DNA of 64,000 nucleotides from an uncultured Phycisphaerales bacterium (GTDB lineage Bacteria; Planctomycetota; Phycisphaerae; Tepidisphaerales; Tepidisphaeraceae), in contig CAVWVQ010000003.1 in NCBI GenBank assembly GCA_963758525.1, positions 2,080,001 to 2,144,000 of the forward strand, in the 5' to 3' direction. Shown piece after piece: positions 44,063 through 58,953 of this stretch (its first letter is position 1; each line of letters begins with the position of its first letter). Made by a program: the position numbers and the translations under genes. The notes under the pieces are model-generated. The model was not told the origin of the DNA, made no database searches, and saw only the letters and a program-made list of their open reading frames with translations.

Positions 44063-44590
44063 TCACAGCGGGCGCAACTCCCAATCCACATTCAAGGCGT
44101 CGCACGTTGCCGCCAGATTCTGGCGAAGCTGCACGACCGCAACGGCGCTGGGAACCGAAAGCGTCAGTTCCATTTCAAACAGCGGCGCCCCGGTATAGGG
44201 CGCCGGCGTGAAGCGTGTTTCCAGGCTCTCGATATTGACGAGCATCTGCCGCAGCGTGTGCGAAACCCGATGAACGATCCCCGGCTGATCGATCGCCGTT
44301 GCAACCAGCCGATACCTCCGCGCCGCCCCGGCCGCGCCCGCCGGCGCGTCGCTGACTGAACGCAGCTCGGCATGCAATCCGCTCGCCTGCGCGAAGCGGG
44401 CGAGGCCGTCCTTCAATTTGCCAAGCGCATCGCCCGCGCCAGCCACCAACAGCATGATGGCGAACTGTCCGCGGAGGTTGACCATCCGGCTGTCTTCGAT
44501 GTTGCCGCCGCTGTCGAAGATGAATCGGGAGACCTCATCCACCAGGCCGGGGCGATCGGTTCCAAGAGCGGTGAGAATCGCGTGTGACAT
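44063..44590 (-). CDS. Double-ACT GcvR-like regulator
   Basis: LTALGTDRPGLV..GGNIEDSRM; AIDQPGIVHRVS..NIESLET. Confidence 0.85.
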   Translation of the reverse strand: MSHAILTALGTDRPGLVDEVSRFIFDSGGNIEDSRMVNLRGQFAIMLLVAGAGDALGKLKDGLARFAQASGLHAELRSVSDAPAGAAGAARRYRLVATAIDQPGIVHRVSHTLRQMLVNIESLETRFTPAPYTGAPLFEMELTLSVPSAVAVVQLRQNLAATCDALNVDWELRPL

Positions 44591-44653
44591 GCGATCGAGG
44601 ATACGGCAGCGAGGCAGGGAGGAAAAGGCGGGGGGAAAGGTAGCAGGGGGAAA

Positions 44654-44806
44654 AAGGCACGAAGGCACGAAGGCACGAAGCACGAAGGCACGAAGGGAAG
44701 GACGCTGCGCGGCGGAGTAGTTATTATCAAATCCCCCTTCCTTACCCTTCGTGCCTCCGTGCCTCCGTGCCTTCGTGCCTTTCCCTCTCCGTCCCTTCGT
44801 GCCTTC
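44654..44806. repeat. GGCACGAA octamer-array inverted element
   Basis: Arrays face their reverse complements; the spacer is near-identical to the 49188 copy. Confidence 0.85.
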
Positions 44807-45903
44807 CCCGCACATCCTCATAAATCGCCGCATCGATCTCCCGCATCCGGCGGTCGTGGGCGGCGTCGCCGCACGCGCCGTTGCAAACCACCGCGACCAC
44901 CAAGTGGTGTTCCGGATCGGCGTACGCCGTCGAGGACTGGAAGCCGTTATGTCCAAAGGTCGATTCGCCGGCATCAACGCCGAAGCCGTACGGCACCGTG
45001 TCCGCCCCATGGCGGTTGGAGTTGATGATGAATCCGAGACCCCAGTCGATCACATGGCGAAAGGTCTGGTCGTACATGCCGACGCGCTGGCGCGATGTCG
45101 AGCGCCTGCACGGTTTCGGGCAGCAGGACGCGGTGTCCGCCGGCCAGTTGACCATCGGACAACAGCATTTCGTAAAACCGCCCGAGCTCGCGAATAGGGC
45201 CGTGGGCGTTGGCCGCGGGCCGGGGTTGGATGACGGCCTCACGCAGGTTCCACGGAGCCAGCGGCTTGAGCGTTCCGCTTTCCGTCTGCTGCAAAACCCC
45301 CAGACGATCGCCGTATTCGTCGAACCGCTCGGGCGGCATGCCGATCCAGGAATCGTTCATCGCCAATGGCAGGCAGATTTCTTCGCGGATGTAACTGCTG
45401 AACGGCCTCCCGCCGAGGCGCTGCACGATCTCGCCGAGAATGAACCAGCTTGTCGTCGCGTGGTAGCCGGCCTTTTCGCCCGGAATCCAATCCCGCTCCA
45501 TCGGCATGGCACAGATTTTCGCCATGATCTGCTCCCAAGGCGCCCGCGGCCAACCCGTGTCCAGCCAGCGGATGCCAGCAGTGTGAGTCAGCAGGTGACG
45601 GATCGTGACCGAATCCTTGCCGTTCGCGCCAAACTCTGGCACGTGCCGCGCCACGGAGTCTTCGATGTCGAGCTGTCCCAATTCCCACAACTGGCCGATT
45701 GCGACGGCCGTCAGCGGCTTGCTCGCGGAAAGCCAGATCATCAACGTGTCGGTCGTCATCGGGACGCCGGGCCGCGACTCGCCGATGGCGAAATCCGCCA
45801 CCGTTTTTCCTCGCTGCGAGACGTACACCTGCGCCCCGATGTGGAGCCCGGCCAACATGCCCGCGCGGATCACCTCGCGCGTGCGAGGCAGAGCGTCCGC
45901 CAC
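44742..45903 (-). CDS. Serine hydrolase (beta-lactamase class C-like); apparent frameshift near 45100
   Basis: LSASKP (SxxK), LLTHTAG, PGEKAGYH, FGHNG. Confidence 0.85.
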
Positions 45904-46001
45904 CGTCTGATCTTGGAAATTGCGTGCAGGCACGATTTCTGATGACGCTTCCCCGTGGCATGGGCGTCCCGCGCGTCCCGCCCATGCCACGGGGAAGCGA
46001 A

Positions 46002-46715
46002 TCAACTCCCGGGTGATCCTGTCGATTTTACTTCGCCAAATTTCAAGATGGCTTCCACACAAGGCGGACCAGGGACTCCAGGAAGACGATCCTCCTCTGA
46101 TCCAGCAGTTGAGCCGGTCGTGGGCATCAACTGATAAATCCTGTCCGCATGCCGCTCGAACATTGCCGAATCATGGTGGCTGATCATCAGCACCTGAAAC
46201 CCCAGGGTTTTCCCGGCCTCGCGAACGATCGCGACCAGCCGCGGGACCAGCGACGGATGCAGCCAGCAGTCCTGCTCGTCGAGCACGAGAAACCGGCGGT
46301 GTTCCTTTTCGTCGAGTGTGGTCAAGGCCAGGAGCCGCAGGCCCACCGAGAGGATGTTGGCGACGGAGCCGCCTTGCCCGTCGATGATGTTCTCCTTTTT
46401 CCCCTGGCGTTCGATGTGAAACTCGATCGACGCGACGCCGTTCTTGAAGCCGCGCTCCGCTTTCAACTGGATCGGCTGCTCCAGCACCTCCTGCAATGCC
46501 CGGCTGAGCTGTGATTCCACCGCCGCGATGACCTGCTGAAAAAGCTGCTGGCCCAGCAGATCCAATGCATCGCGCACGGCATCGGCAACCGAGAGGTATT
46601 CGGCGAGCTTCTGCTGTTCGCCCGCGACGAAGCGCCGCCGCTCCGCCATCGCTTCGCGGCGATGCACCAGCCGATCGCATCGGCGGCGCAACGCATCCGG
46701 CATCGGAACGCTCAT
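46002..46715 (-). CDS. C-terminal ABC-ATPase half of a split SbcC/Rad50-like protein
   Basis: Coiled coil, signature-like QGGSV, Walker B FLVLDEQ, H-loop MISHH; no Walker A. Confidence 0.8.
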   Translation of the reverse strand: MSVPMPDALRRRCDRLVHRREAMAERRRFVAGEQQKLAEYLSVADAVRDALDLLGQQLFQQVIAAVESQLSRALQEVLEQPIQLKAERGFKNGVASIEFHIERQGKKENIIDGQGGSVANILSVGLRLLALTTLDEKEHRRFLVLDEQDCWLHPSLVPRLVAIVREAGKTLGFQVLMISHHDSAMFERHADRIYQLMPTTGSTAGSEEDRLPGVPGPPCVEAILKFGEVKSTGSPGS

Positions 46716-46716
46716 C

Positions 46717-47010
46717 TCACGCGTCGCCAAAATTCTTCTCCGCTTCGCCGAGGTCGGCTTCAATCTTCTCGAGGTGCCGCTGGTACTCGGCGCGCTGCCG
46801 TTCGTTCTCGGCATTCATCGCTTCGAGCTGCCTCTGCAGCTCGGCAAGATCGTCCGTCTGGAACTGCTCACGCGCCTCCTGCTTCAGGCGGGCAAGCTGC
46901 TCCTCGGCATTTTTCAAGTCGGCCGCGGCGGTGATCTTCCGCTCGTTGAGCTTCGCGTGACGCTGGCGCAGCGATTCGATCGATTCCTGTTTTTCTGTTC
47001 TAGCTGGCAT
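46717..47010 (-). CDS. Small coiled-coil protein (middle piece of the split SbcC system)
   Basis: Heptad-rich 97 aa with FQTDDLAEL; coupled to both neighbours. Confidence 0.7.
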   Translation of the reverse strand: MPARTEKQESIESLRQRHAKLNERKITAAADLKNAEEQLARLKQEAREQFQTDDLAELQRQLEAMNAENERQRAEYQRHLEKIEADLGEAEKNFGDA

Positions 47011-47950
47011 CGTGCAGCACCTCATCGGCCAGCGCGAGAATCTGATCGCGCATGCGCTGGTCGTCAAATTGTTCGAGATTGCGCCGAAGGAACTCGCGGA
47101 CTCCTTCGCCGGACGTTTTGAACTTCTGCAGCGCGGCAAGCCCCGCGACGAACTGCGATTCTCCCAACTCGACATGATCGCCGACGATCTCGGGGTGAAA
47201 GACTTCCTCGAACGGCGCGTGCGGCACCGCGATCGTCGTCGCGATCCACGCCAGCGGCGTCACGTCAATCCGAAGGACGGATGGACGGTGTTCCCGAATG
47301 GCGTCGCTCCGCTTGATCCGGCTGATGTTGCCGGGATTGCACCACGTCGTCGCGCCGCACACCACCTGTTGTGCGGCTTTGTGAATATGCCCGTTGATCA
47401 GCAGATCGATGCCGGGAATCTCGTGGCATTGAATGGCCGAGCCCAGAAATTCTCCCGCGCCAAATGCGATATCGTGATGCGTGATCCAGAATGTCCAGCG
47501 CGGATCGCCCACCTCGGCGCGGTCCACCCGCGCAGGCAATGGCTGTCCCCAGCTGGTTCCCCCGACGGCAATGGACACGCCGTTGATCTCGCCGGTCCAC
47601 GTTCCCCGGTCGAGCAGTCGGAGCCGGCCGGCAGCGAGGAGGATCGAAAGGGTGTCGTTGTCCACCAGCGCATTCTCGCTGCAGTCGTGATTTCCGCCGA
47701 CGGTCAGAACGAGCTGGCCTTCCAGCACCCGCATCAATTCAACGGTCACCCAGTTGGCATTGTCGCGCGGGTAGTGGAACAGATCGCCCAGCACGATCGG
47801 CAGCAGCCGCTCGCGCCGGGCCAGATCGAGGCACCAGCGAAACTTCGACAGCGTCACGCGCGGATAGTCGTCCTTGCGGAATCCGGGGACCCGGCTGCAG
47901 AGGTGCGGATCGCCAATGCAGAGAATGCCCGCATAAGGCAGCTCAAACAT
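47000..47950 (-). CDS. SbcD/Mre11-like metallophosphoesterase nuclease
   Basis: GDPH, LGDLFH, GNHD, THH, NGHIH, NPGNISR. Confidence 0.85.
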   Translation of the reverse strand: MFELPYAGILCIGDPHLCSRVPGFRKDDYPRVTLSKFRWCLDLARRERLLPIVLGDLFHYPRDNANWVTVELMRVLEGQLVLTVGGNHDCSENALVDNDTLSILLAAGRLRLLDRGTWTGEINGVSIAVGGTSWGQPLPARVDRAEVGDPRWTFWITHHDIAFGAGEFLGSAIQCHEIPGIDLLINGHIHKAAQQVVCGATTWCNPGNISRIKRSDAIREHRPSVLRIDVTPLAWIATTIAVPHAPFEEVFHPEIVGDHVELGESQFVAGLAALQKFKTSGEGVREFLRRNLEQFDDQRMRDQILALADEVLHDAS

Positions 47951-49160
47951 GCGCGTGCTCCGCTTCGAGCACCGCTTCGCAAGTCGTCGGGGCGCCGCAG
48001 GTCGGGCAATTCGGATGCGCGTCCACCCACGCGCGCACCTGCTCGCGCAGCCCGTCGATTGCCGTTTGCGCCAAAATCAGATCGGCTTTCGCGGCCGTGC
48101 GCCGAGCGGTCAGCTCTCTGCCGCGCGAGATCAGGTTCTTCATCGCCAGTGGCCGCTGAATATTTTCTTCCGGCGGACCGGACAAGGCCATCAGACCGCG
48201 ATCGATTGCCTGCGCCTGGCGGGATTGCATGAGGGCAGCGCGCATCTTCTCAGTCAGCAGCCGCAGCGCGCTGGGGTCACACCAGCGCGGCGGAGATCGA
48301 AGATCCTTCACCACTGCAGCTCTGATCTGATGCTGCCGCAGGCCCGCGGAGGCTCTGGAAATACCTTGAATCGTTTTCACTAATTTCGAGGTGTCGATCC
48401 ACGCTGGCGGGGCCATCAGCGGCTCGGCGGCGCGCACGCGATTCGCCTGTGTTTCGCGTTGTTGTCGCGCCCGGCCGAGACGATCGACAGCATTCTTTCG
48501 CGATAACATCGCGCGATCTGATTCGGCAAGCGCTCGGTACGCCTCTTCGAGTCGCGCCGTCCGTTCCGACAATTCCGTCACGGGCGCGGTCGATTCGAGC
48601 CGTCGATCCAGCGCCGCCGCTTCTGAAGCGAGCCGGTCATGATCGCGCCGGGCGTCCTTTACCTTCTCACGATGTCGCTTCTGCATCTCCAGGAGCTTTT
48701 CGGCATCCGATGAGCTGGCGAAAAACGTCGCCGCTCGCGCGGGAGGGTCATCCAGCAGGAAAATCGGTGACTTCTGCAGGCCAAAATGGACAAAGAACGA
48801 ATCGCCCGAATCATTTGGCGGATCGATGCGCGGCATGCGCAGATAGCGATGCAAATCCTCAGGAACATCGCCGCGCAGACGTCCGATCTCGCGGCCGTCA
48901 ATGACGTAGCTGACAACACCCTTGCGCCGCTGCCAGGTGAGGACGTGACCGTCATCGGTTTCGACGGTGACCGACGCGTCCTTTTCCCCGTGCCGCACCG
49001 CGAAATCCGCCGGCTTGTTGTAGCAGAGCGTCTGCAGCGCATGCACAACCGCGGATTTGCCGCAGTTGTTTGGACCGACCAGCACCGTCAGCCCCGCCGC
49101 CGGCTCGATGACGGTCCGTCCGTGGGCCATGTAATTCTCGAGGATGATCCTCCGGATCAT
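47943..49160 (-). CDS. N-terminal half of a split SbcC/Rad50-like ATPase ending in a zinc hook
   Basis: I.LENYMAH, Walker A GPNNCGKS, Q-loop FGLQ, coiled coil, CPTCG 15 aa from the end. Confidence 0.85.
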   Translation of the reverse strand: MIRRIILENYMAHGRTVIEPAAGLTVLVGPNNCGKSAVVHALQTLCYNKPADFAVRHGEKDASVTVETDDGHVLTWQRRKGVVSYVIDGREIGRLRGDVPEDLHRYLRMPRIDPPNDSGDSFFVHFGLQKSPIFLLDDPPARAATFFASSSDAEKLLEMQKRHREKVKDARRDHDRLASEAAALDRRLESTAPVTELSERTARLEEAYRALAESDRAMLSRKNAVDRLGRARQQRETQANRVRAAEPLMAPPAWIDTSKLVKTIQGISRASAGLRQHQIRAAVVKDLRSPPRWCDPSALRLLTEKMRAALMQSRQAQAIDRGLMALSGPPEENIQRPLAMKNLISRGRELTARRTAAKADLILAQTAIDGLREQVRAWVDAHPNCPTCGAPTTCEAVLEAEHAHV

Positions 49161-49187
49161 GACGGGATTGTAGGGGGAAAGGGAAGA

Positions 49188-49332
49188 AGAGGCACGGGGG
49201 ATAAGGCACGGGGGAGAGGCACGGGGGGACAAGGCACGAAGGCACGAAGGGGAGGACGCTGCGCGGCGGATCTTTTTTATCACATCCCCTTCCTCACCCT
49301 TCGTGCCTCCGTGCCTTCGTGCCTTCGTGCCT
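49188..49332. repeat. GGCACGAA octamer-array inverted element
   Basis: Same arms and ggacgctgcgcggcgga spacer as the 44654 copy. Confidence 0.85.
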
Positions 49333-49396
49333 TTCTTCGACTGGCCTTTCTTCCCAGTCGCACCTTTCCCCTTCCACGGCTATAACCCGCCAACCG

Positions 49397-50668
49397 ATGT
49401 CCGCAACTCCATCATTGCCCTCTCCCGATAGCGGCGCACCCAAGGGCGCGCTGAAGATCATCTTCTTCATCGTCTTCATGGATCTGCTCGGCTTTGGGAT
49501 CATCATCCCGCTGATGCCGCGGTATGTGCCGGATTACCAGCACAATGTGTTTGGCGTCACGCTGCTCTTTTCCGTCTATTCCATCTGCCAGTTCGTTGGC
49601 GCGCCGATTCTGGGATTGCTCAGCGATCGGCATGGCCGCCGGCCGGTGCTGGTGCTGTCACAGTTTGGAAGCGTGGTGGGATACGCGATGCTGGGGTTTG
49701 CGACCGATTGGGGCGGGCACTACACGCTGGCAATCATCTACCTCTCTCGAGTGATCGATGGTTTTACCGGCGGCAACATCTCCACTGCCCAAGCCTACGT
49801 CAGCGATGTGACCACGCACCAAGACCGGGCCAAGGGAATGGGAATGATCGGGGCGGCGTTCGGCATCGGCTTTTCCGTCGGCCCGGCGATCGGCGGCATC
49901 CTGGGAAAATATCACGTGAGCTGGCCGGCCTACCTCGCGGCGCTGATGAGCCTGTGCGCCGCCATTCAAACCTGGCGCAAGCTTCCGGAAACCCGCCACG
50001 ACAAGCCGGTCGAGGCGGAGGTCTGGCTGCATCCGAGCCGGTTTCTGCCGATCTTGCGAAATCCAGTGCTGGCGCAGTTCCTCGCGATCGGCTTTTTCAC
50101 CATGGCCGGATTCGTCATGATGGAGACGACGATGGTCCTCTTCCTCGACCGCACCTTCGGCTACAAGGAAGCGGCGACCGGGTGGTACTTCGCGTTTATT
50201 GGGTTCATCATCGTCATCGTGCAGGGACGACTGATCGGCCCGCTGACGCGCCGCTTTGGAGAATGGCCGCTGGCCATCGCCGGGCCGCTGTTCATCGCGG
50301 CCGGCATGGCGGGGCTGACGCAAACCGCTTTCACCCCGCTGCTCGGTCTGCTCCTGGTGGCGGGCGCTTCCAACGCCATTGGCCGCAGTCTGCAGACTCC
50401 CACGCTCACCGCGCTGCTCTCCCGTTACGCGAACAGAAGCGAGCAGGGCGTCGCCTTCGGGCTGTTTCACGGGTTAGGCAGTCTGTCGCGCGTCGCCGGG
50501 CCGATTCTGGCTGGATGGGGCTATCAGCATTTGTTTCGACGCAATACCGGGCAATTTGCGCTCGCCGGGGGCATATCAATCGCCGTAGCGGTCTGGACGC
50601 TCCTGCTGTCGCGCACTTCCGGGAGGATTGAAACATCGCAGCCGGAAGAAAGTTCGCTCACGGTGTAG
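49397..50668 (+). CDS. MFS transporter (TetA/DHA1-like)
   Basis: DLLGFGIIIP, G.LSDRHGRRPVL, SRVIDGFTGGN, GF..GPAIGG. Confidence 0.92.
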   Translation: MSATPSLPSPDSGAPKGALKIIFFIVFMDLLGFGIIIPLMPRYVPDYQHNVFGVTLLFSVYSICQFVGAPILGLLSDRHGRRPVLVLSQFGSVVGYAMLGFATDWGGHYTLAIIYLSRVIDGFTGGNISTAQAYVSDVTTHQDRAKGMGMIGAAFGIGFSVGPAIGGILGKYHVSWPAYLAALMSLCAAIQTWRKLPETRHDKPVEAEVWLHPSRFLPILRNPVLAQFLAIGFFTMAGFVMMETTMVLFLDRTFGYKEAATGWYFAFIGFIIVIVQGRLIGPLTRRFGEWPLAIAGPLFIAAGMAGLTQTAFTPLLGLLLVAGASNAIGRSLQTPTLTALLSRYANRSEQGVAFGLFHGLGSLSRVAGPILAGWGYQHLFRRNTGQFALAGGISIAVAVWTLLLSRTSGRIETSQPEESSLTV

Positions 50669-50712
50669 TGCGCTGACGGATTCCCCCGACACTCTTACGT
50701 TCGCCCAAACCT

Positions 50713-50817
50713 GGTTAGCCGCGACGCGCAGCGGAGCGCGTATTCGAACGGGAAAACTCGGAATTTCACACTGCGCATCCATGCAAATACACGCTCCGCT
50801 GCGCGTCGCGGCTAACC
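50713..50817. repeat. REPIN-like inverted doublet, second copy
   Basis: Same arms as 14688-14789; lies between convergent genes. Confidence 0.85.
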
Positions 50818-50850
50818 CGGGTTAACGCGTGGGCCTCCTGGGTGCTCCCC

Positions 50851-51765
50851 TCACACTTCCCGCTCGACGACAAACCGCGCCAGCGCTCGAAGTCCGTCGG
50901 CGGCGGGCCCGATCGACTGGATGCTTTCCAGCGCTGCCGCCAGTTGCTTCGAGGCTTCGCGACGGCTCTCTTCCAGCCCCAGCAGGCTGGGGTAGGTGTT
51001 CTTCCCCCGTTCGGCGTCCTTGCTGGTGGCCTTTCCAAGCTGCTCCGGCGTGCTCGTCACGTCCAACACGTCATCCACGATCTGAAATGCCAAGCCCATG
51101 TGCTGGCCAAAGCTGGTGATGGCTCCCAGCAGCGCGCCCTCGACCGCCCCGCTGGCAATGACGCCGAGCCGGCACGCGGCCGTGAGCAGGGCGCCGGTCT
51201 TGAGCCGATGAACGCGCTGAAGATCGTGCAGCGGAAGCGAACGGGTCTCTCCGTCCATGTCGAGCACTTGACCGCCGATCATCCCCTCCGGTCCGCTCGC
51301 GGCTGCCAGCTCGCGGACCAACGCCGGGACGAGCTTCGGATCGGCATCGCGAGCGATGATCTCGAACGCCATCGTCACCATCGCGTCGCCGGCGAGAATC
51401 GCGAGCGCTTCGCCGTACACTTTGTGATTTGTCGGCACCCCTCGGCGGAGGTCGTCGTTGTCCATCGCGGGCAGATCGTCGTGCACCAGGCTGAACGTGT
51501 GAATCAGCTCGATCGCACCGGCGGCCGCGAGTACCGAAGGGTTGGTCGCGGCCTTGGGGTCCACCGCCAGCGCGCATTCCAGCACCAGCGCGGGACGGAG
51601 ACGCTTGCCGCCGGCCAGCAGGCTGTACTCGACGGCGTCGAGCAATCGCGCCGGCGCCTCCGGATGCCGCCCGCGCAAACCGCCAAACCAGACGGTCAGG
51701 TGCTCGCCATGCTGGCGGAGCAGTCCAATGGCCCGATCTTCAATCGGCATTACCCGTGACATCAC
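50851..51765 (-). CDS. ispA: Geranyltranstransferase / FPP synthase
   Basis: GGKRLRP, SLVHDDLPAMDNDDLRRG, GQVLD, FQIVDDVLD, GKNTYP; follows xseB. Confidence 0.9.
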   Translation of the reverse strand: MMSRVMPIEDRAIGLLRQHGEHLTVWFGGLRGRHPEAPARLLDAVEYSLLAGGKRLRPALVLECALAVDPKAATNPSVLAAAGAIELIHTFSLVHDDLPAMDNDDLRRGVPTNHKVYGEALAILAGDAMVTMAFEIIARDADPKLVPALVRELAAASGPEGMIGGQVLDMDGETRSLPLHDLQRVHRLKTGALLTAACRLGVIASGAVEGALLGAITSFGQHMGLAFQIVDDVLDVTSTPEQLGKATSKDAERGKNTYPSLLGLEESRREASKQLAAALESIQSIGPAADGLRALARFVVEREV

Positions 51766-52019
51766 TCGTTCCCGCCCGCTGCTTCCACCAGCGGCTCAGC
51801 CGCCAGCGACCCGTCGGGCGCCTTGGTCAACAGCTCGATCTGTTTTTCGGCCGCCCCCAGCACTGTCCGGCAGTGCCGAATCAGAAAGCTGCCGCGCTCG
51901 TATTTCACAATGCTTTCTTCCAGCCCGACCTGACCCCCCTCCATGTCGCCGAGGATCTGCTCCAATTCCTGCAGCGCCTCTTCGAACGTTTCGGGAGGAA
52001 CCTGTTTCGCCTTGGCCAT
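51762..52019 (-). CDS. xseB: Exodeoxyribonuclease VII small subunit
   Basis: TFEEALQELEQI..LEESI..YERG..C...L..AE. Confidence 0.92.
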   Translation of the reverse strand: MAKAKQVPPETFEEALQELEQILGDMEGGQVGLEESIVKYERGSFLIRHCRTVLGAAEKQIELLTKAPDGSLAAEPLVEAAGGNE

Positions 52020-52050
52020 CGGGCGAAAGTATAGCGGAAAAGCAGAAGAG

Positions 52051-52230
52051 AGGCACGAAGGGAAGTGAGGGAAAGGCACGAAGGCACGGAGGCACGGAGG
52101 CACGAAGGGTAAGGAAGAAGACTCTCGTGAATCAGAGCGAAGCCACAAAAATCCCCTTCCTTCCCTTCGTGCCTTCGTGCCTCCGTGCCTTCGTGCCTTT
52201 CCCCAGCTTCCCTTCGTGCCTCCGTGCCTT
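52051..52230. repeat. GGCACGAA octamer-array inverted element
   Basis: aggcacgaaggcacggaggcacggagg faces ccttcgtgccttcgtgcctccgtgcc. Confidence 0.85.
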
Positions 52231-52252
52231 GGTGGCCTTTCCCCAGCTCCCC

Positions 52253-53293
52253 TCAATCCGCCGCCATTGCAAACACCGGCTCGGTCTCTTCCGCCCGTTC
52301 GTCATACCGCAGCCGCCAATCGAGGAATCGGTTGACCACCTCCTCGAAGTCCGCGGCGCTGTTGATCGCCCGCATCGGGTCGCGGAGCGATCGGCATGGG
52401 TTCATCTCCTTGGCGTACCAACTCACCCGCTTGCGAAACTCGCAGACGGCGCTCCGCTCGCTGCGGTAATGCACCAGATGATGAAAGTGATCCCGCATGA
52501 GCTGGCACTTCTCCTGAATGGTCGGCGGCGGCGGAACCGTGCCAGAGGTGAAATAGCTCCAGATATCGCGAAAGATCCAAGGCGTGCTCAGAGCCGCCCG
52601 CCCGATCATCACGCCGGCGCACCCCGTCCGGCGAATCATTTCCGCCGCATCTTGGGGCGAACGGATGTCGCCGTTGCCAATCACCGGAATCCGCTTGACG
52701 GCAGCGACGACCTCGGCGATGCCGTCAATTCGCGCCTGCCCGGAAAAACGCATTTCCGTCGTGCGGCCGTGGATGGTCACCAGCGCCACGCCCGCGTCCT
52801 CGAGTCGGGCGGCCAGCGACGGCGCCACGATGCACGAGTCATCCCACCCGAGCCGGAGCTTTGCCGTCAACGGAGTATGCCGCAGCACGCGCTTGACGCG
52901 TTCGACCATCCGCAGCGTGCGATCGGGATCGCAGAGGAGCTTGCTGCCGCCATCGCGCTTGGTGATCTTGTCGACCGGACATCCCATGTTGATGTCGATC
53001 ACATCCGCGCCGCGATCCTCGGCCCATTGTGCCGCCTCGCAGAGCTTGTCGACGTCCCCTCCGTACAATTGCATCGCCAGCGGCGAGTCTTCCTCGCACG
53101 TTGCCGCCAGTTGCATGGATCGAAAATTTTCCCGCAGAACGCCTTCGGGGCAGAGCAGATCTGTGCAAGCCAGCCCCACGCCGCCGCAGGAGCGCGCAAC
53201 CAACCGGAACGACACGTCGCAGTACCCCGCGATTGGCGCCAGAAAGAGATTCGTCGCCAGGTTCAGCGACTCGATAGAGAGTTGTTTGCTCAC
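52253..53293 (-). CDS. dusB: tRNA-dihydrouridine synthase B
   Basis: LAPIAG, DINMGCPV, KLRLGWD, TIHGRT, IGNGDI, GVMIGRA. Confidence 0.9.
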   Translation of the reverse strand: MSKQLSIESLNLATNLFLAPIAGYCDVSFRLVARSCGGVGLACTDLLCPEGVLRENFRSMQLAATCEEDSPLAMQLYGGDVDKLCEAAQWAEDRGADVIDINMGCPVDKITKRDGGSKLLCDPDRTLRMVERVKRVLRHTPLTAKLRLGWDDSCIVAPSLAARLEDAGVALVTIHGRTTEMRFSGQARIDGIAEVVAAVKRIPVIGNGDIRSPQDAAEMIRRTGCAGVMIGRAALSTPWIFRDIWSYFTSGTVPPPPTIQEKCQLMRDHFHHLVHYRSERSAVCEFRKRVSWYAKEMNPCRSLRDPMRAINSAADFEEVVNRFLDWRLRYDERAEETEPVFAMAAD

Positions 53294-53966: not shown

Positions 53967-54611
53967 TCACCCGGCTTCGGCGATTCGGAGCGATCGTGAG
54001 TCGATCGGCACCTGTTCCGCGTGCAGGTCGGCCCACATCGCGGCCTCGCCGTTGAGCGGGCTTTTAATGTTGTACGCCTGATAGGCGATCATCTCGCCAA
54101 TGCGAACGGCCAAGTCGATCAGGCGTTCGCCGGCGGTCCAATGATCGCCGACGCAGATGGTGCGGGCGTCGATATTGGGGTGGAAGATCGGGGTGAGCAT
54201 CTTGCAATGAGGGCTGAGCCGGGGGTAATCGCTGGTCAGTTCGATTTCAACCAGGTGGGTGTCGCGAACGATCGGGTCGTTCCCCTTGCCGCGCTCCAGA
54301 CCGCGAACGAAATACTCCAGTTGATAAGTGGAAGGGGGATCACCGACGGCGGACTTGAGCCGGATCGGTCCGTCGGCGGCAAAGGTCCGAGCCATCAGCT
54401 CGGCATCCGCACGCAACCGCCGGACGCGCATGGGAATCCTCGGCGCTGGCGCCCGGGAGGTTGGCGGCGCCGCAGCTGGAGCGTTGGGAACGGTCAGCAC
54501 CGCGCCGCAGGTCTTGCACGACGCGCGACGGCCGGCGTACGCGGGCGGCACCGAGAACGCCCGACCGCATCGATCGCACTGAAAACTGATCATTACCGCG
54601 TCGGCAGCCAT
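53967..54611 (-). CDS. Ubiquitin-conjugating enzyme E2 (UBC fold) with N-terminal zinc ribbon
   Basis: YPRLSP...TPIFHPNID..TICV (HPN plus catalytic Cys), W, SPLNGEAA; N-terminal CDRC..CKTC. Confidence 0.88.
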   Translation of the reverse strand: MAADAVMISFQCDRCGRAFSVPPAYAGRRASCKTCGAVLTVPNAPAAAPPTSRAPAPRIPMRVRRLRADAELMARTFAADGPIRLKSAVGDPPSTYQLEYFVRGLERGKGNDPIVRDTHLVEIELTSDYPRLSPHCKMLTPIFHPNIDARTICVGDHWTAGERLIDLAVRIGEMIAYQAYNIKSPLNGEAAMWADLHAEQVPIDSRSLRIAEAG

Positions 54612-55573
54612 GTTCTTCCACCTACCCACCAATAATATGAGAGAGCCAGGCCCGCGACGGCGCCGGTCAATGAAACTGCGATCGAAAGAAAGACAACTCT
54701 TCGCTGGCGCTGGGGCCTGGCCCGAAACAAGTAGAGCAGCGCCGCCGCGCCCGCGACCAGCGCGGTCGCGCCGAAGGTGAGCGTCCCCGCCACCGCTCCC
54801 AGCACGCTGACGGCCAGGAGCGCATACGCCAATGGCATGCCGCCATGAGCGAGTGCGAGATGCTCCTCCAAAGGAAGGGACGAAACCACGGGCGCCGCGT
54901 CAGGCTCGCGCAGTGCCGCTGAGTTGACCTGCGAGCAGCCGTAGACGGAGCAACCGCCGTTTTCAGTCCAGCATTCGATGTGAAACAGGGCTTTGCACGA
55001 CGGGCATTGTTTGGTTTCCTCCCCCGGTTGGATCGCGCCGTGGCATATGCCGCATTGAGCCGGCGGACTCTGCGGGGTGGTCGCGTCCGGCCGCGCCGGA
55101 CCCACGGGCCGCGGAACCGCGATTGGCGCTCCGCAGATCCGGCAGCGACCCCGCTTGCCGGCGGCGTCCCACGGCGCCCACATCGGAGCGCCGCAGGTGC
55201 AGTCAAATACAATGCCCGCTTCCGGCGAGGGCGTCGGCTGTGCGCGCTGGTGGAGGTCCAGCGGCGTGGCGCCAACAGGGATGGCCTGCCCCTCCTCCAG
55301 CCGCAGCGCCAACGACCCGATGCGAATCCGGTCGCCGGGCCGAACGTCAGTGCGGACGACAACCCGCTGGTCGTTGACAAACGTACCGCTTTTGCTGCCG
55401 GCATCGGCGATGAAGTGCGTGCCGTCGGCGGTGACGCCGATCCAGGCGTGAATGGGCGCAACCGCTTTGCTGGCGGCGCGGACCTGGCTCTCGGGCCGGC
55501 GTCCGACGATGACCCGGCCGCTGATGACACCAGCTTCCATCTTGCCGTCATGTTCTACGATCAGTAGCGCCAT
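54593..55573 (-). CDS. FHA - zinc ribbon - RING finger - TM protein (putative E3 ligase)
   Basis: FHA (VGR..H..SKSGTFVN..GDRIRIG); CTC..CRIC; CGIC..CPSC..H..CW..GGC..GC; C-terminal TMs. Confidence 0.82.
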   Translation of the reverse strand: MALLIVEHDGKMEAGVISGRVIVGRRPESQVRAASKAVAPIHAWIGVTADGTHFIADAGSKSGTFVNDQRVVVRTDVRPGDRIRIGSLALRLEEGQAIPVGATPLDLHQRAQPTPSPEAGIVFDCTCGAPMWAPWDAAGKRGRCRICGAPIAVPRPVGPARPDATTPQSPPAQCGICHGAIQPGEETKQCPSCKALFHIECWTENGGCSVYGCSQVNSAALREPDAAPVVSSLPLEEHLALAHGGMPLAYALLAVSVLGAVAGTLTFGATALVAGAAALLYLFRARPQRQRRVVFLSIAVSLTGAVAGLALSYYWWVGGRTWLPTR

Positions 55574-55588
55574 GAATCCCCGCGGTCC

Positions 55589-56816
55589 TCAGCTGGTTCG
55601 ATCCTGAAATAGAAAGATCGTCGATCCCACCGTGATCCGGTCTCCGTGGCGCAGCCGAATTTTCGAAATCGGCTTGTTGTTGATCATGGTTTTCTGTCCC
55701 AGCGGCAAATCTTCCAGTTCATACGCGCCGGGCACAATATGAATTGCGGCGTGCCGCGGGCCGACCTTGGCGTCCTTAAAGAGATAAATCTGGCAATCCG
55801 GGGCGCTGCCGATGAATGTCGGATTTCGGTAGAGGATGAACTGTTTGCCCGCCAGCACGCCGGCAATGACGCGGAGCCAAGCGGTGCGGGCGGCGTTCTC
55901 GATCAGGCCGGTTCCGATGCCGGAGATGACGCCGATCGCAAGCAGCGCCATCAGTCTCGAGTCCTGCGCTGTCAGTGAGGCGCCGCACCGGCTCGAACAG
56001 CGCGCCGCCGATCAGTCCGCCGATCAGTCCGCCGGCCATTCCAATGGCGAGCTTTTTGGGATTGCGCATCACCACTCCCGCGCCGGCGACGAGAAACAGT
56101 CCGAGGATTCCCCAGGAGCCGGTTTGCACCATCGATTCGGTCAGATGTCGCGGGCCGGCGGTTTGGCGCAGGACGTAAATGAACATCGCCGACGCCAGCC
56201 CTCCAAGCAGACCGAGCAAGGCGGCGACCGAACCGTTGGTCAGCGCACTGGCGAAATTGCGTTGCGTCAGCGGCTCGGCGACGGCAAGACATGCCGCGAT
56301 CAGCATCCCGCAGATGCCGAAGATCAGCGCGTTGCTGATGAATTCCTTGGCGCGGTCGCGCGCCGCGATTTCCGATTCGCGCGTATCCCGCTCCGCTTGC
56401 GACAGCTTCGGATCGGTTTCGATTTCAAAATAGGGATTGTCCTGCCCGTCGGCGCGGATCAGCGCCAGCGCCTGGTCGGCCTCGTCGGCGCTGGATCGGC
56501 CGGTGTCGCGGGCGGCGGTCACCTTCTGCATTTCATGAATCAGATCCGCCGCCTCGGCTTCGGTGGCGGGTTTGAACTGAAGCGCCACCCCGCTTCCCCA
56601 CGCCAGCAGCCCCCCGAGGATTCCGAAAGCGGCCATGTACACGATCGAGTTATAAATGAGCTTGGGCCGGCTCGGTCCGGTCGTTTCCGGGACCGCGTCG
56701 GCGTCGAGCTTCGCATAGGCGCGATTGCGCTCCATCGCCTTCTGCTCGCTGATGCGAGTCTCGACTTTGCGGCTCTGCAGATCGTCCCAGGTTACGACAA
56801 GTTTTTGGTTTTCCAT
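55589..56816 (-). CDS. Polytopic membrane protein with C-terminal FHA domain; apparent frameshift near 55958
   Basis: Gly-rich TM helices, then AWLRVIAG.LAGKQFILY..IGS...HA.I..LRHGDRITVG. Confidence 0.78.
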
Positions 56817-56837
56817 GGCAGTACATCTCCACAGTTG

Positions 56838-57686
56838 TTACGAATTCTGACCCGAAGGCGGGCGCACCGCCGCCGGCATCGTGCTCGGCTCGCGATCGGC
56901 CGGATCATTGGCTTTGGGCGACCCGCGGTTTACGCCGACGACGAACAAAAACACCATCAGCGGCCAGACCAGCGCGACCAGCCCGACTGCTCCCAATCCC
57001 GCCATGATCCATTTTTGCCGCTGCTCCGCCGCCTGGAGGCGCGACATCAAGTCGCTCAACGTGCCCGAGGAAACTTTCCCGTCGGCCGGTATAACCGCGG
57101 GTGGTGCGACTCCCGCCGGACGCGCCGCCTCGCCGTTTGCAGGCAGAACGAGAAATGGCTCGTTGACCGTCTTTCCCGCGTGCCAGACGAAGACGCCCTC
57201 TTCCCGGCTCTTGGGGTCGTATACCAGCGCGATCTGCCAGGGTTCCGCGAACCAGTTCGCCTGGATGAAGTCGTCCATCCCCGACAGAAAAATCCCAAAG
57301 CCGGGGTGCGTGTGATACCACCCGACGAATTTCTTATCGGGAAACTCCCGGTCGCGCACCTCGTTGACGTGCGTCCAGGTTTCGGAAGTGATGGTCACCT
57401 GCGTTTGCTTTCCGGCCGAAAAGTTTCCCCGGACGCTCGCATCGATCAGGCACCACGGGCCCTTCTCGTCGTGGAAGACGCTGCCCAGCAATACGCCGCA
57501 TATTTCGATGTCGCTGGTGGCTTGGCCGTGGGCGTGAATATCGTCCAGGACCGATTGGAGGATCGCGACCTGGTATCGCCGCTCGCGCACCTTTGCCAGG
57601 GCCGGCAAATCGCGGCGCGGAAAGTCCTCGGCACGGAGATGGGCCGCGTCGCGGCCGGTCGAAAGCTGTTCGTTGGTCAGAGCCAT
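56838..57686 (-). CDS. JAB/MPN+ (JAMM) isopeptidase with C-terminal coiled coil and TM anchor
   Basis: EICGVLLG..GWYHTHPGFGIFLSGMD (intact E/H/H/S/D); TM WIMAGLGAVGLVALVWPLMVFLFVVGV. Confidence 0.9.
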   Translation of the reverse strand: MALTNEQLSTGRDAAHLRAEDFPRRDLPALAKVRERRYQVAILQSVLDDIHAHGQATSDIEICGVLLGSVFHDEKGPWCLIDASVRGNFSAGKQTQVTITSETWTHVNEVRDREFPDKKFVGWYHTHPGFGIFLSGMDDFIQANWFAEPWQIALVYDPKSREEGVFVWHAGKTVNEPFLVLPANGEAARPAGVAPPAVIPADGKVSSGTLSDLMSRLQAAEQRQKWIMAGLGAVGLVALVWPLMVFLFVVGVNRGSPKANDPADREPSTMPAAVRPPSGQNS

Positions 57687-58953
57687 TCCAACGCCTCGGA
57701 ATCTGCCAGCGGCCCCAGGACGCGCGGCGCGTCGGCGGCCAGCTCCAGCCCGATCGCGCGGTCGCCGGCGCGCGCGATGAGCACATCGAACAACGGCACC
57801 CCGATGCTCGCCAGCGGCTGATCGAGAAAAGATTCGTCGCCGCGGATGGTATGAAATGTCACCGGTTCGCGGCGGACATTTGGGCCGCAACTGCAGAAAG
57901 CCGCCGAGGCCGGCACGCGCCCCAGCGATGCGAACATCGTCTCTTCTTTTCCGCAAGCGGGGCAGACCAGCTTGTGCAGAACGTCGCGCGCGAACTCCAG
58001 CCCCGCGCCCGCGCCAAGACGCTGGCGCACTTCGCGAAGCAAGTCGCCGGCGGTATGCGTCAGCGCCGACGCGTCGAGCGGAATGATTTCCTGGAGAATC
58101 TCGTGACTGTAACAACTGGCTTTGCGTTGAAACTCCACCTGATACGCTTCGGTGCTCAGCCCGTCAAAAACAAACCCGCGGCCGCGGATGGTCTCCAATC
58201 CGTGCAGCAGCTTAACGGCTTCCTGTGACTGCACGCCGGCGATGATCGAGCTGATGGTCGGCGTGGTCGGGGTGTGGCCCGTTTCCATCTGCTCCCGCGA
58301 GAGAAGATTGCACGAGCGTCGAGCCTGGAGCAGTCGCCAGTCGGTCTCCGACATGGTGCATTCGTAGCAGGGCCCGTCGGGCGCGAACACGCGCGCGGTG
58401 CCCTGAATTTGCTCGATGGCGCCGTCAATCCAGGGTCGGTTGCAGCGCCAGCAGTTGCGGTTGATTGCAAGGCGCGCCTCGCGGTTATCGAGGCCGCCGA
58501 TGACGACGTCCGCCCAGCGAAACACGCCGACGCCCAGGTCGTACACCACGTTGCCGACAAAGGCGTGTGCTTTGATCTGGGGATAAATTTCCCCGGCCGC
58601 GCGAACGGCGACCTCAGCCTTGAAAGCGCCGTTATCGGCGGCGCGATAGAGCACCGAGCGCGAGAGATTCGAGTTTTCGATGCGATCCAGATCCGCGATC
58701 AGCAGGTGACCGACGCCCAGCAGCGCCAGGTTTTTGACGATCTCATTGCCCAGCGCCCGGCGCCGACGACGAGAACCTTCGCCCTGGCCAGCTTCTCCTG
58801 GTCCCACCACTCGATCAGGCGAAAACGATCAAACCGGTCGGAAACAGCGGATTGCGCATTGTTGAGGTCGATGCGAAGGCGCGGCCCATCGGGCGACGCT
58901 TCGGATTCGGCGCACGCGCTGTCGGCGACGTTGAACGGATTGGGACGCGTCAA
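57677..58953 (-). CDS. Ubiquitin-activating enzyme E1 (ThiF/MoeB fold with C-terminal extension); apparent frameshift near 58757
   Basis: DRFDRF..WW.Q, GAGALGNE (restored by one G), D.DRIENSNLSR, LDNREAR, CYEC, RRSC (probable catalytic Cys), CPAC..CSC. Confidence 0.9.

Follow-up and report, generated by a model that had tools for sequence, protein, structure and literature searches.

Six linked, co-oriented genes of a soil planctomycete (a Tepidisphaeraceae genome), all on the minus strand, encode a full ubiquitin-style set of proteins, and the locus raises the question of where such machinery would act and what, if anything, switches it. A sequence-only reading of the window, that is, the whole 64,000-nucleotide stretch of DNA that was analysed, had proposed a membrane-localised, possibly phosphorylation-gated tagging complex rather than a soluble antiviral module. 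The reading that we favour, and consider reasonably probable, is a machine that conjugates and deconjugates a ubiquitin-like protein (Ubl) at the cytoplasmic face of the inner membrane, tagging membrane or membrane-proximal proteins in regulation of the envelope.

Composition of the operon

The gene order is Ubl, E1, JAB-TM, 6TM-FHA, FHA–zinc ribbon–RING–3TM and zinc ribbon–E2, and the same six-gene order was found again across dozens of genomes, which places it above chance. The features are as follows.

58962..59231, minus strand: Ubl of the YukD family, 89 aa (Pfam YukD 49.9 bits, cut-off 27)
57677..58953 (start inferred), minus strand: E1 (ThiF-like) activating enzyme (ThiF 140.7 bits)
56838..57686, minus strand: JAB/MPN+ peptidase, 282 aa, the putative eraser and Ubl maturase (Pfam JAB 42.6 bits)
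56931..56987, minus strand: C-terminal TM helix of the JAB, residues 234–252 (Kyte-Doolittle 2.66)
55589..56816, minus strand: 6TM-FHA protein, a putative scaffold (six TM helices, C-terminal FHA)
55592..55897, minus strand: FHA domain of the 6TM protein (Pfam FHA 50 bits)
54593..55573, minus strand: E3, FHA–zinc ribbon–Prok-RING_1–3TM, 326 aa (Pfam FHA 47.5 bits, Prok-RING_1 29.8 bits)
53967..54608, minus strand: E2 with an N-terminal zinc ribbon (Pfam UQ_con 34 bits)

The Ubl, which is 75% identical among relatives, terminates in EITAG with an exposed Gly; this motif is present in 69 of 70 relatives, and variable tails extend beyond the Gly in 42. The E1 motif CxxC..SC is found in 64/65 relatives, and the E2 active site HPN..C (Cys152 here) in all 67, with a profile that matches eukaryotic E2s (E 3e-11). 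A Ubl with a C-terminal Gly and the catalytic Cys residues of E1 and E2 thus stand together in one operon. The JAB domain (residues 38–141) carries catalytic E61, H125, H127, S135 and D138, a motif kept in 74/76 relatives, and is an active JAB as judged on motif only. In the E3, Prok-RING_1 spans residues 173–214, just above its cut-off (29.1 bits), and its eight zinc ligands (C174, C177, C190, C193, H198, C201, C208 and C213; C4HC3) are invariant in 41 of 41 aligned relatives.

Burroughs, Iyer and Aravind reportedly predicted prokaryotic E1/E2/RING/JAB Ubl operons with Prok-RING_1 in 2011. The operon belongs to this Prok-RING_1 (PF14446) tri-ligase Ubl class, a class predicted from genomes and outlined in PMC4197634 and PMC7159879. 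A 123-aa ORF at 53661-53293 lacks relatives among the compared loci and was left out of the operon, and promoter and terminator scans returned chance-level signals only.

Membrane anchoring and topology

Three proteins of the operon carry membrane segments. The JAB has one TM helix at its C-terminus, as previously noted, with basic residues just before it; such a helix is found in 70/76 relatives, and five of the six TM-less JABs terminate in a strongly amphipathic helix. Among relatives, basic residues precede the JAB TM (51 versus 10), with a mean K+R of 2.4 before the helix and 1.0 after. The E3 was confirmed as an N-terminal FHA with C-terminal TMs, both by Pfam domains and by an AlphaFold2 model with three C-terminal helices (248–265, 269–284 and 291–318), the second of which is followed by an Arg-rich loop. 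C-terminal TM helices are present on 87 of the 93 RING relatives; bacterial Prok-RING_1 proteins are reported in Pfam to bear TM helices.

The 6TM-FHA protein consists of an N-terminal KxIx(S/T)WDDL motif, six TM helices with variable outer loops, and a C-terminal FHA. Six TMs are predicted in 62/82 relatives, and the AlphaFold2 model of a congener's intact protein has a pLDDT of 87.7. Large insertions, including vWA domains, occur in loops 1 and 3, which lie on the same side. A sliding-window K+R count of the loops gave no clean alternating pattern, and fold searches, in which the TM bundle was barely covered, returned FHA matches only.

Every catalytic domain and each FHA is predicted to lie in the cytoplasm, with no catalytic domains placed on opposite membrane faces, and by inspection no signal peptide precedes the JAB or FHA/RING domains. 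These results support a conserved membrane anchoring with one-sided topology, in agreement with the proposed membrane localisation. The companion claim, that writer, eraser and adaptor are all membrane-anchored and FHA-linked, stands for the anchoring but is overstated for the FHA linkage because the JAB has no FHA domain of its own.

Natural fusions may place these proteins in one complex. The RING is fused N-terminal to 6TM-FHA, the reverse of gene order, in two sequences (P0079 and P0102), and the JAB is joined to 6TM-FHA in two others (P0074 and P0128). Each is a single sequence, on 1–4 contigs for P0102, P0074 and P0128, and the JAB fusions run in gene order and could therefore be assembly artefacts. 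At the level of sequence, both kinds of fusion support a single complex. Close Ubl, E2 and 6TM-FHA relatives share the same 16/400 phylum genomes, plus one contig-end case. In one genus the Ubl remains beside 6TM-FHA, with E1-JAB-E3-E2 located elsewhere; this split is one event in a single genus. A Ubl–FHA distance correlation (r=0.83) reflects common descent and was discarded.

Defence, phosphorylation and other readings

The operon occurs in 69 of 103 family genomes, as a single copy in 68; the E2 is absent from about a third of the family genomes searched, including two near-closed assemblies (G247 and G136). Occurrence across the phylum is patchy (4%), a pattern compatible with a conflict system too. 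The conserved neighbours are polysaccharide genes, with Wzc-like and Dus genes as the flanks here and a divergent Wzc-like gene in 34/62 rows. The Wzc association may be mere synteny. A functional link between Wzc and the FHA found no support because the Wzc-like neighbour is also present at loci where the E3 FHA is absent or degenerate (L039, L048, L082, L087 and the locus in this window); Wzc is, in addition, of the Tyr-kinase type. A Pup ligase was looked for in the genome (91% complete) and not found, and hence there is no evident route to degradation; the genome has two PF00227 matches.

A membrane system against phages or predators, which would conjugate the Ubl to invader proteins at sites of entry or assembly much as cytoplasmic Bil-type systems do, could draw on the patchy distribution and on the variable outer loops of the 6TM protein. 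Tested bacterial E1-E2-Ubl systems work in defence, as PMC10557695 and PMC11601603 describe them, and a related tri-ligase set sits in predicted conflict systems according to PMC7159879. However, in PADLOC 2023, from which Bub models may be absent, four of the six proteins (Ubl, E2, E3 and 6TM-FHA) match nothing and the other two, E1 and JAB, match weakly, and 3/78 downstream neighbours match its models, each partially; the model match plus defence neighbourhood that marks Bil, Bub and CBASS was not found. One pattern scan placed no E2 relatives in viral contigs. With polysaccharide genes as conserved neighbours, a single highly conserved copy and no effector gene in the operon, an antiviral role appears unlikely. 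The locus is stable and non-defence, and the anchors and the few, partial PADLOC matches among neighbours agree with the earlier view that this is not a soluble antiviral module.

The proposed phosphorylation gating depends on the two FHA domains. Canonical phosphothreonine-binding FHA motifs are GR, SxxH and NG, as given in PMC3162421. The E3 FHA of this genome (residues 21–86) keeps G24-R25 and has APIH at 39–42 in place of SxxH, both as first read, and also SKSGT instead of SRNGT; having lost Ser, Arg+1 and Asn, it is not a canonical phosphothreonine binder. These changes are substitutions without an indel relative to the congener, which rules out a hidden compensated frameshift behind APIH. 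In the 6TM protein, IGS replaces GR, as had been seen, and GPRH for SxxH and LGQKT for SxNGT add to the changes noted earlier. The FHA fold of this domain is confirmed (Z 19.1, rmsd 1.2, 97 aligned) and the domain is strongly conserved despite loss of the binding Arg, which is present in 0/91 relatives (1/139 in another count); the Ser is kept in 3/91. This FHA, too, falls outside the canonical definition.

Relatives of the E3 FHA present a different picture: Arg, Ser and His are retained together in 50/56 and Asn in 31/56. Since these binding residues are kept although the FHA varies more than any other domain (31% identity), the binding motif looks selected. TM parts and the 6TM FHA are widespread in homologous operons, but a canonical FHA is found on just 52/93 RING proteins; the 41 FHA-less E3s form deep branches plus one nested clade, the FHA being confined to one subclade and lost again within it. 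In a fully gated scheme, kinases would mark membrane proteins, FHA domains would read the mark and the RING would ligate the Ubl there. The retained motif and the genome's roughly 19 kinase loci fit such a scheme, and yet it is rather unlikely given the FHA-less E3s, the eroded E3 FHA of this genome and the 6TM FHAs without Arg. Kinase ORFs near the operon are at background density, three in 2/80 loci (1.19 Mb) against about 3.5 expected, so the anticipated Ser/Thr kinase co-occurrence was not borne out. In another analysis a kinase did adjoin three loci, but these are of a sister subtype that lacks FHA proteins. Gating is thus mostly unsupported as first proposed, although within the family it is likely true as an optional extra. 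Because its FHA domains have lost key binding residues, the operon is likely not phosphorylation-switched in this organism. Core to the system are its anchors and the phosphate-blind FHA, and the phosphate-reading FHA is optional: a clade-specific addition to the E3 that, by its residues, probably reads phosphothreonine in most relatives and not in this genome.

Much less probable is a non-covalent module in which the YukD-like Ubl clamps the 6TM protein's FHA as YukD does on YukB, with the enzymes secondary. The YukD family match, a weak EccD match and the retention of the Ubl with 6TM-FHA in the split genus recall type VIIb YukD–YukB, where a YukD-family Ubl adjoins, and binds, a membrane protein with docking FHA domains (as reported in PMC12637312). 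Type VIIb has no E1, E2 or E3, however, and the likeness is an analogy only; among the matches listed, the YukB FHA and this FHA show no sequence or fold match. The invariant terminal Gly with its variable tails and the intact E1, E2, RING and JAB sites speak against such a module, YukD itself is reported as not conjugated (PMC1779556), and the conserved neighbours examined include no secretion ATPase.

As assembled, frameshifts near 58756 and 55967 split the E1 and 6TM-FHA genes (tblastn). Relatives of the latter have a single frame, and once its break is allowed for, the multi-TM protein ends in a second FHA, as had been read. One near-identical 151-base short-read contig carries one extra base at the E1 break, no reads cover the break near 55967, and frameshifts occur in 20/116 conserved genes of the same assembly, or one per 7 kb; both breaks are likely assembly errors. 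That the operon is decaying, as the two breaks, the uncovered one at 55967 and FHA substitutions private to this genome could suggest, is hardly credible against that assembly-wide rate, the extra base and the retention of every catalytic residue.

Proposed mechanism and relation to known systems

In the favoured conjugation machine, the JAB would cleave Ubl precursors back to the invariant Gly, E1 would activate the Ubl and hand it to the E2 Cys, and the membrane RING would place E2~Ubl on targets, from which the membrane-held JAB would take the tag off. The 6TM-FHA protein may be a scaffold or receptor with its variable outer loops toward the periplasm; through its N-terminal motif and its phosphate-blind FHA it would likely dock the Ubl or the enzymes by protein contact.

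The operon shares with tri-ligase operons the five core parts, a C4HC3 RING above the Pfam cut-off and a Planctomycetota host, and differs in an FHA-RING fusion in one clade, a universal phosphate-blind 6TM-FHA partner and a JAB anchor replaced by an amphipathic helix in some relatives. Our literature search found no bench test of the RING-bearing tri-ligase class. Like Bil, Bub and CBASS Cap2/Cap3, the operon has E1, E2, JAB and (as in Bil and Bub) Ubl, with covalent chemistry predicted from its sequence; unlike them, it carries membrane anchors, its E3 is a RING protein, its E2 is of the eukaryote type with HPN..C, and its Ubl resembles YukD. Eukaryotic FHA-RING ligases (CHFR, RNF8 and Dma1/2) also place the FHA N-terminal to the RING, and eukaryotic membrane RING ligases (Hrd1 and Doa10/MARCH) also have a TM-tethered RING; we know of none that combines FHA, RING and TM anchor. 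The different RING family and the clade-limited fusion indicate that the bacterial FHA-RING is convergent with the eukaryotic FHA-RING ligases. FtsH ternary vWA-MoxR systems, as described in PMC7159879, likewise hold JAB, E1, prokaryotic RING, E2 and Ubl together, but there the Ubl forms a fusion with E2 and EAD1 and is accompanied by MoxR, vWA, FtsH and caspase genes, whereas the Ubl here is free-standing (89 aa) and the E2 separate.

A bolder extension is doubtful at present: a vertically inherited, non-defence system in which the six-helix receptor would read the periplasm through swappable loops, its repurposed, phosphate-blind FHA would dock the tag, and a membrane FHA-RING ligase, evolved independently of CHFR/RNF8, would couple Ser/Thr kinase signalling to Ubl tagging in the envelope, with the Wzc-type polysaccharide machinery encoded next to the operon as one example of a target. 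If true, bacteria would have an equivalent of the ubiquitination of membrane proteins in eukaryotes. To our knowledge, those bacterial ubiquitin-like systems that have been tested are soluble, and most of them act against phages. This compact six-gene version, at a stable locus in two thirds of the family, offers a clean entry point to E1-E2-RING tagging of bacteria's own membrane proteins.

A six-gene operon for predicted ubiquitin-like conjugation

The RING, JAB and multi-TM FHA genes proposed by the sequence-only reading are all real, and they lie on the minus strand within a run of six genes whose products match Pfam domains.

Features of the operon (window coordinates; all Pfam matches above cut-off)
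59231-58962, minus: ubiquitin-like protein (Ubl); YukD
about 58953-57677, minus: E1; ThiF
57686-56838, minus: JAB protein; JAB
56816-55589, minus: multi-TM FHA protein (6TM-FHA); FHA
55573-54593, minus: FHA-zinc ribbon-RING-TM protein (E3); FHA and Prok-RING_1
54608-53967, minus: zinc ribbon-E2; UQ_con

The frame is broken near 58756 in the E1 gene and near 55967 in the TM-FHA gene, both of which are in one frame in most relatives. At the E1 break, one near-identical short-read contig of 151 bases carries an additional base; reads leave the 55967 break uncovered. Frame changes affect 20 of the 116 conserved genes tested in the assembly, at a density of one per 7 kb. Both breaks are most likely assembly errors.

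The accessible text of PMC4197634, citing Burroughs 2011, reports E1/E2/RING/JAB Ubl operons from Planctomycetes, Actinobacteria and Acidobacteria and terms them uncharacterised; the window's operon is a member of this class. A literature search covering few subscription papers returned neither experimental work on the bacterial class with a RING nor a description of a 6TM-FHA partner. The operon is a variant of this predicted class.

Most complete loci share the gene order Ubl-E1-JAB-6TM/FHA-RING-E2. Among 103 Tepidisphaeraceae genomes, a tally that counts the window's own genome and the unpublished G283, an E2 profile match was found in 71 (two through a long paralogue only) and the operon type in 69, as a single copy in 68; it is missing from two near-closed genomes of the family. 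Close Ubl, E2 and 6TM-FHA homologues coincide in the same 16 of 400 other genomes of the phylum, plus one contig-end case, in a survey that scored only 9-13 candidates per genome and may contain misses. The JAMM motif of the JAB is kept in 74/76 sequences, CxxC..SC of the E1 in 64/65, HPN..C of the E2 in 67/67 and the RING zinc ligands in 41/41. The Ubl motif EITAG is kept in 69/70, and in 42 the Gly is followed by a variable tail. This combination of kept catalytic motifs and a Ubl Gly with variable tails is the sequence signature of a predicted covalent conjugation system with JAB maturation.

In L071, an orphan second E2-like domain, with HPN kept and the catalytic Cys apparently missing, starts an 854-aa open frame (L071:7104-9665; G000:C3:4015103-4017664, minus), and long paralogues resembling it occur in 16/103 family genomes. 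The 6TM-FHA gene at L147:9026-10303 lacks any gene of the Ubl system within 10 kb; in the congener (L074:7432-13571), 6TM-FHA and E3 lie apart, with 6 kb of other genes between them. Deeper-branching operons include a trypsin-like protease (7 loci; for example, L153:5597-6535) or DUF2752 (6 loci; for example, L151:15311-15778). A homologous zinc ribbon is common to the E2 (window 54608-54470, minus) and the E3 (55210-55120, minus) and recurs on about ten other gene products in the genome, most of which have TM helices; L179 has at least six zinc ribbon-TM genes inside its operon. Such proteins are candidate adaptors or substrates.

Elsewhere in the window, four genes at 46002-49283 (minus), split into short ORFs, have by inspection the appearance of an SbcC/SbcD-type ATPase and nuclease set. 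Short GGCACGAAG-type intergenic repeats recur across 44300-52260 and yield 'RHEGTKARR'-like shadow ORFs.

Membrane anchoring and topology

Anchors were counted by hydropathy in distinct closed ORFs from loci L033-L153. A TM follows the JAB domain in 70 of 76 JABs, and TMs follow the RING in 87 of 93 RING proteins. One of the six TM-less JABs is truncated; in the other five the anchor appears to be replaced rather than lost, because they terminate in a helix with a hydrophobic moment that ranks among the top 3% for windows of the protein concerned. Of 82 multi-TM proteins, 62 have six helices. AlphaFold2 models show six long helices followed by the FHA for the congener's intact 6TM-FHA (pLDDT 87.7) and three helices for the window's E3 (pLDDT 88.2).

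The JAB and RING/FHA domains are N-terminal to the first TM of their proteins, and Lys and Arg are more abundant before the JAB TM in 51 of 70 cases and after it in 10. Given the even helix count, we infer that both ends of the 6TM protein are inside, as is its MRNxKR loop. Large insertions, vWA domains among them, lie in loops 1 and 3; an automated Lys and Arg count over the loops gave a pattern that was not clean. The protein also has a conserved N-terminal motif, K-[IL]-x-I-[ST]-W-D-D-L (window 56816-56780, minus; low confidence in the monomer model), which resembles a SUMO-interacting motif.

In a soluble sister subtype, E1-Ubl-E2-JAB, from other Planctomycetota (L164-L174), no 6TM-FHA was seen in the 11 loci fetched and the E2-adjacent JAB lacks a TM in 11/11; a second, TM-bearing JAB and a RING occur in 2/11. 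Membrane anchoring is therefore a mark of the window's subtype. A TM Ser/Thr kinase adjoins three sister loci of one family.

Two contrasting FHA domains and a possible complex

The accessible text of PMC3162421 lists GR, SxxH and NG as the motifs crucial for phosphothreonine binding by FHA domains. The changes first read from the sequence (APIH for SxxH in the E3, IGS for GR in the 6TM protein) are present, and two further elements are missing from the 6TM FHA, the SxxH Ser and NGT. Across relatives, the two domains behave in opposite ways. In the 6TM FHA, Arg occupies the GR position in 0/91 sequences (1/139 in a second count) and Ser is found at SxxH in 3/91, yet the domain is conserved to the same degree as the E2 (60% identity, 32 loci), with W, AGK-F and D invariant; it is likely to be a protein-docking surface. 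By contrast, no domain varies more than the E3 FHA (31% identity), which nonetheless probably binds phosphothreonine in most relatives, because Arg, Ser and His are kept in 50/56. Of 93 RING proteins, 52 carry this FHA; in a midpoint-rooted tree of 57 loci, the deep branches are without it and one nested clade has lost it. In the window, APIH is a substitution private to this genome; the congener has SRVH.

About 19 kinase loci were found in the window's genome, none beside the operon. The check for co-occurrence with kinases gave three kinase ORFs in 80 related loci (1.19 Mb) against about 3.5 expected. The first interpretation, of a membrane-bound and possibly phosphorylation-gated complex, is partly supported, in its anchoring but mostly not in its gating.

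Among the best 150 family representatives, a RING is fused N-terminally to 6TM-FHA in P0079 and P0102, opposite to the gene order, and a JAB is fused to it in P0074 and P0128, each fusion being a single sequence on few contigs; P0083 was discounted as apparent read-through. In one genus, through one event, Ubl stays beside 6TM-FHA (5 loci) and E1-JAB-E3-E2 lie together elsewhere (3/3 checked). In type VIIb secretion, according to PMC12637312, YukD binds YukB at its FHA domains; this is a precedent by analogy for a putative Ubl-FHA contact and does not imply homology to 6TM-FHA.

Biological role

A role in defence would accord with the patchy spread across the phylum, the variable outer loops of the 6TM protein and the defensive activity of tested relatives. 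Against a defence island, four of the six operon proteins have no PADLOC match, only 3/78 downstream neighbours have one (all partial), the operon is single-copy and a divergent Wzc-like gene heads a polysaccharide cluster in 34/62 rows (one locus counted twice). In the window, the Wzz/Wzc-like polysaccharide copolymerase (59460-61624, plus) has a Walker A motif, diverges from Ubl across 228 bases and carries a frameshift near its end, with the Tyr-rich tail absent. On balance, we favour, with moderate confidence, an operon that regulates membrane or envelope proteins.
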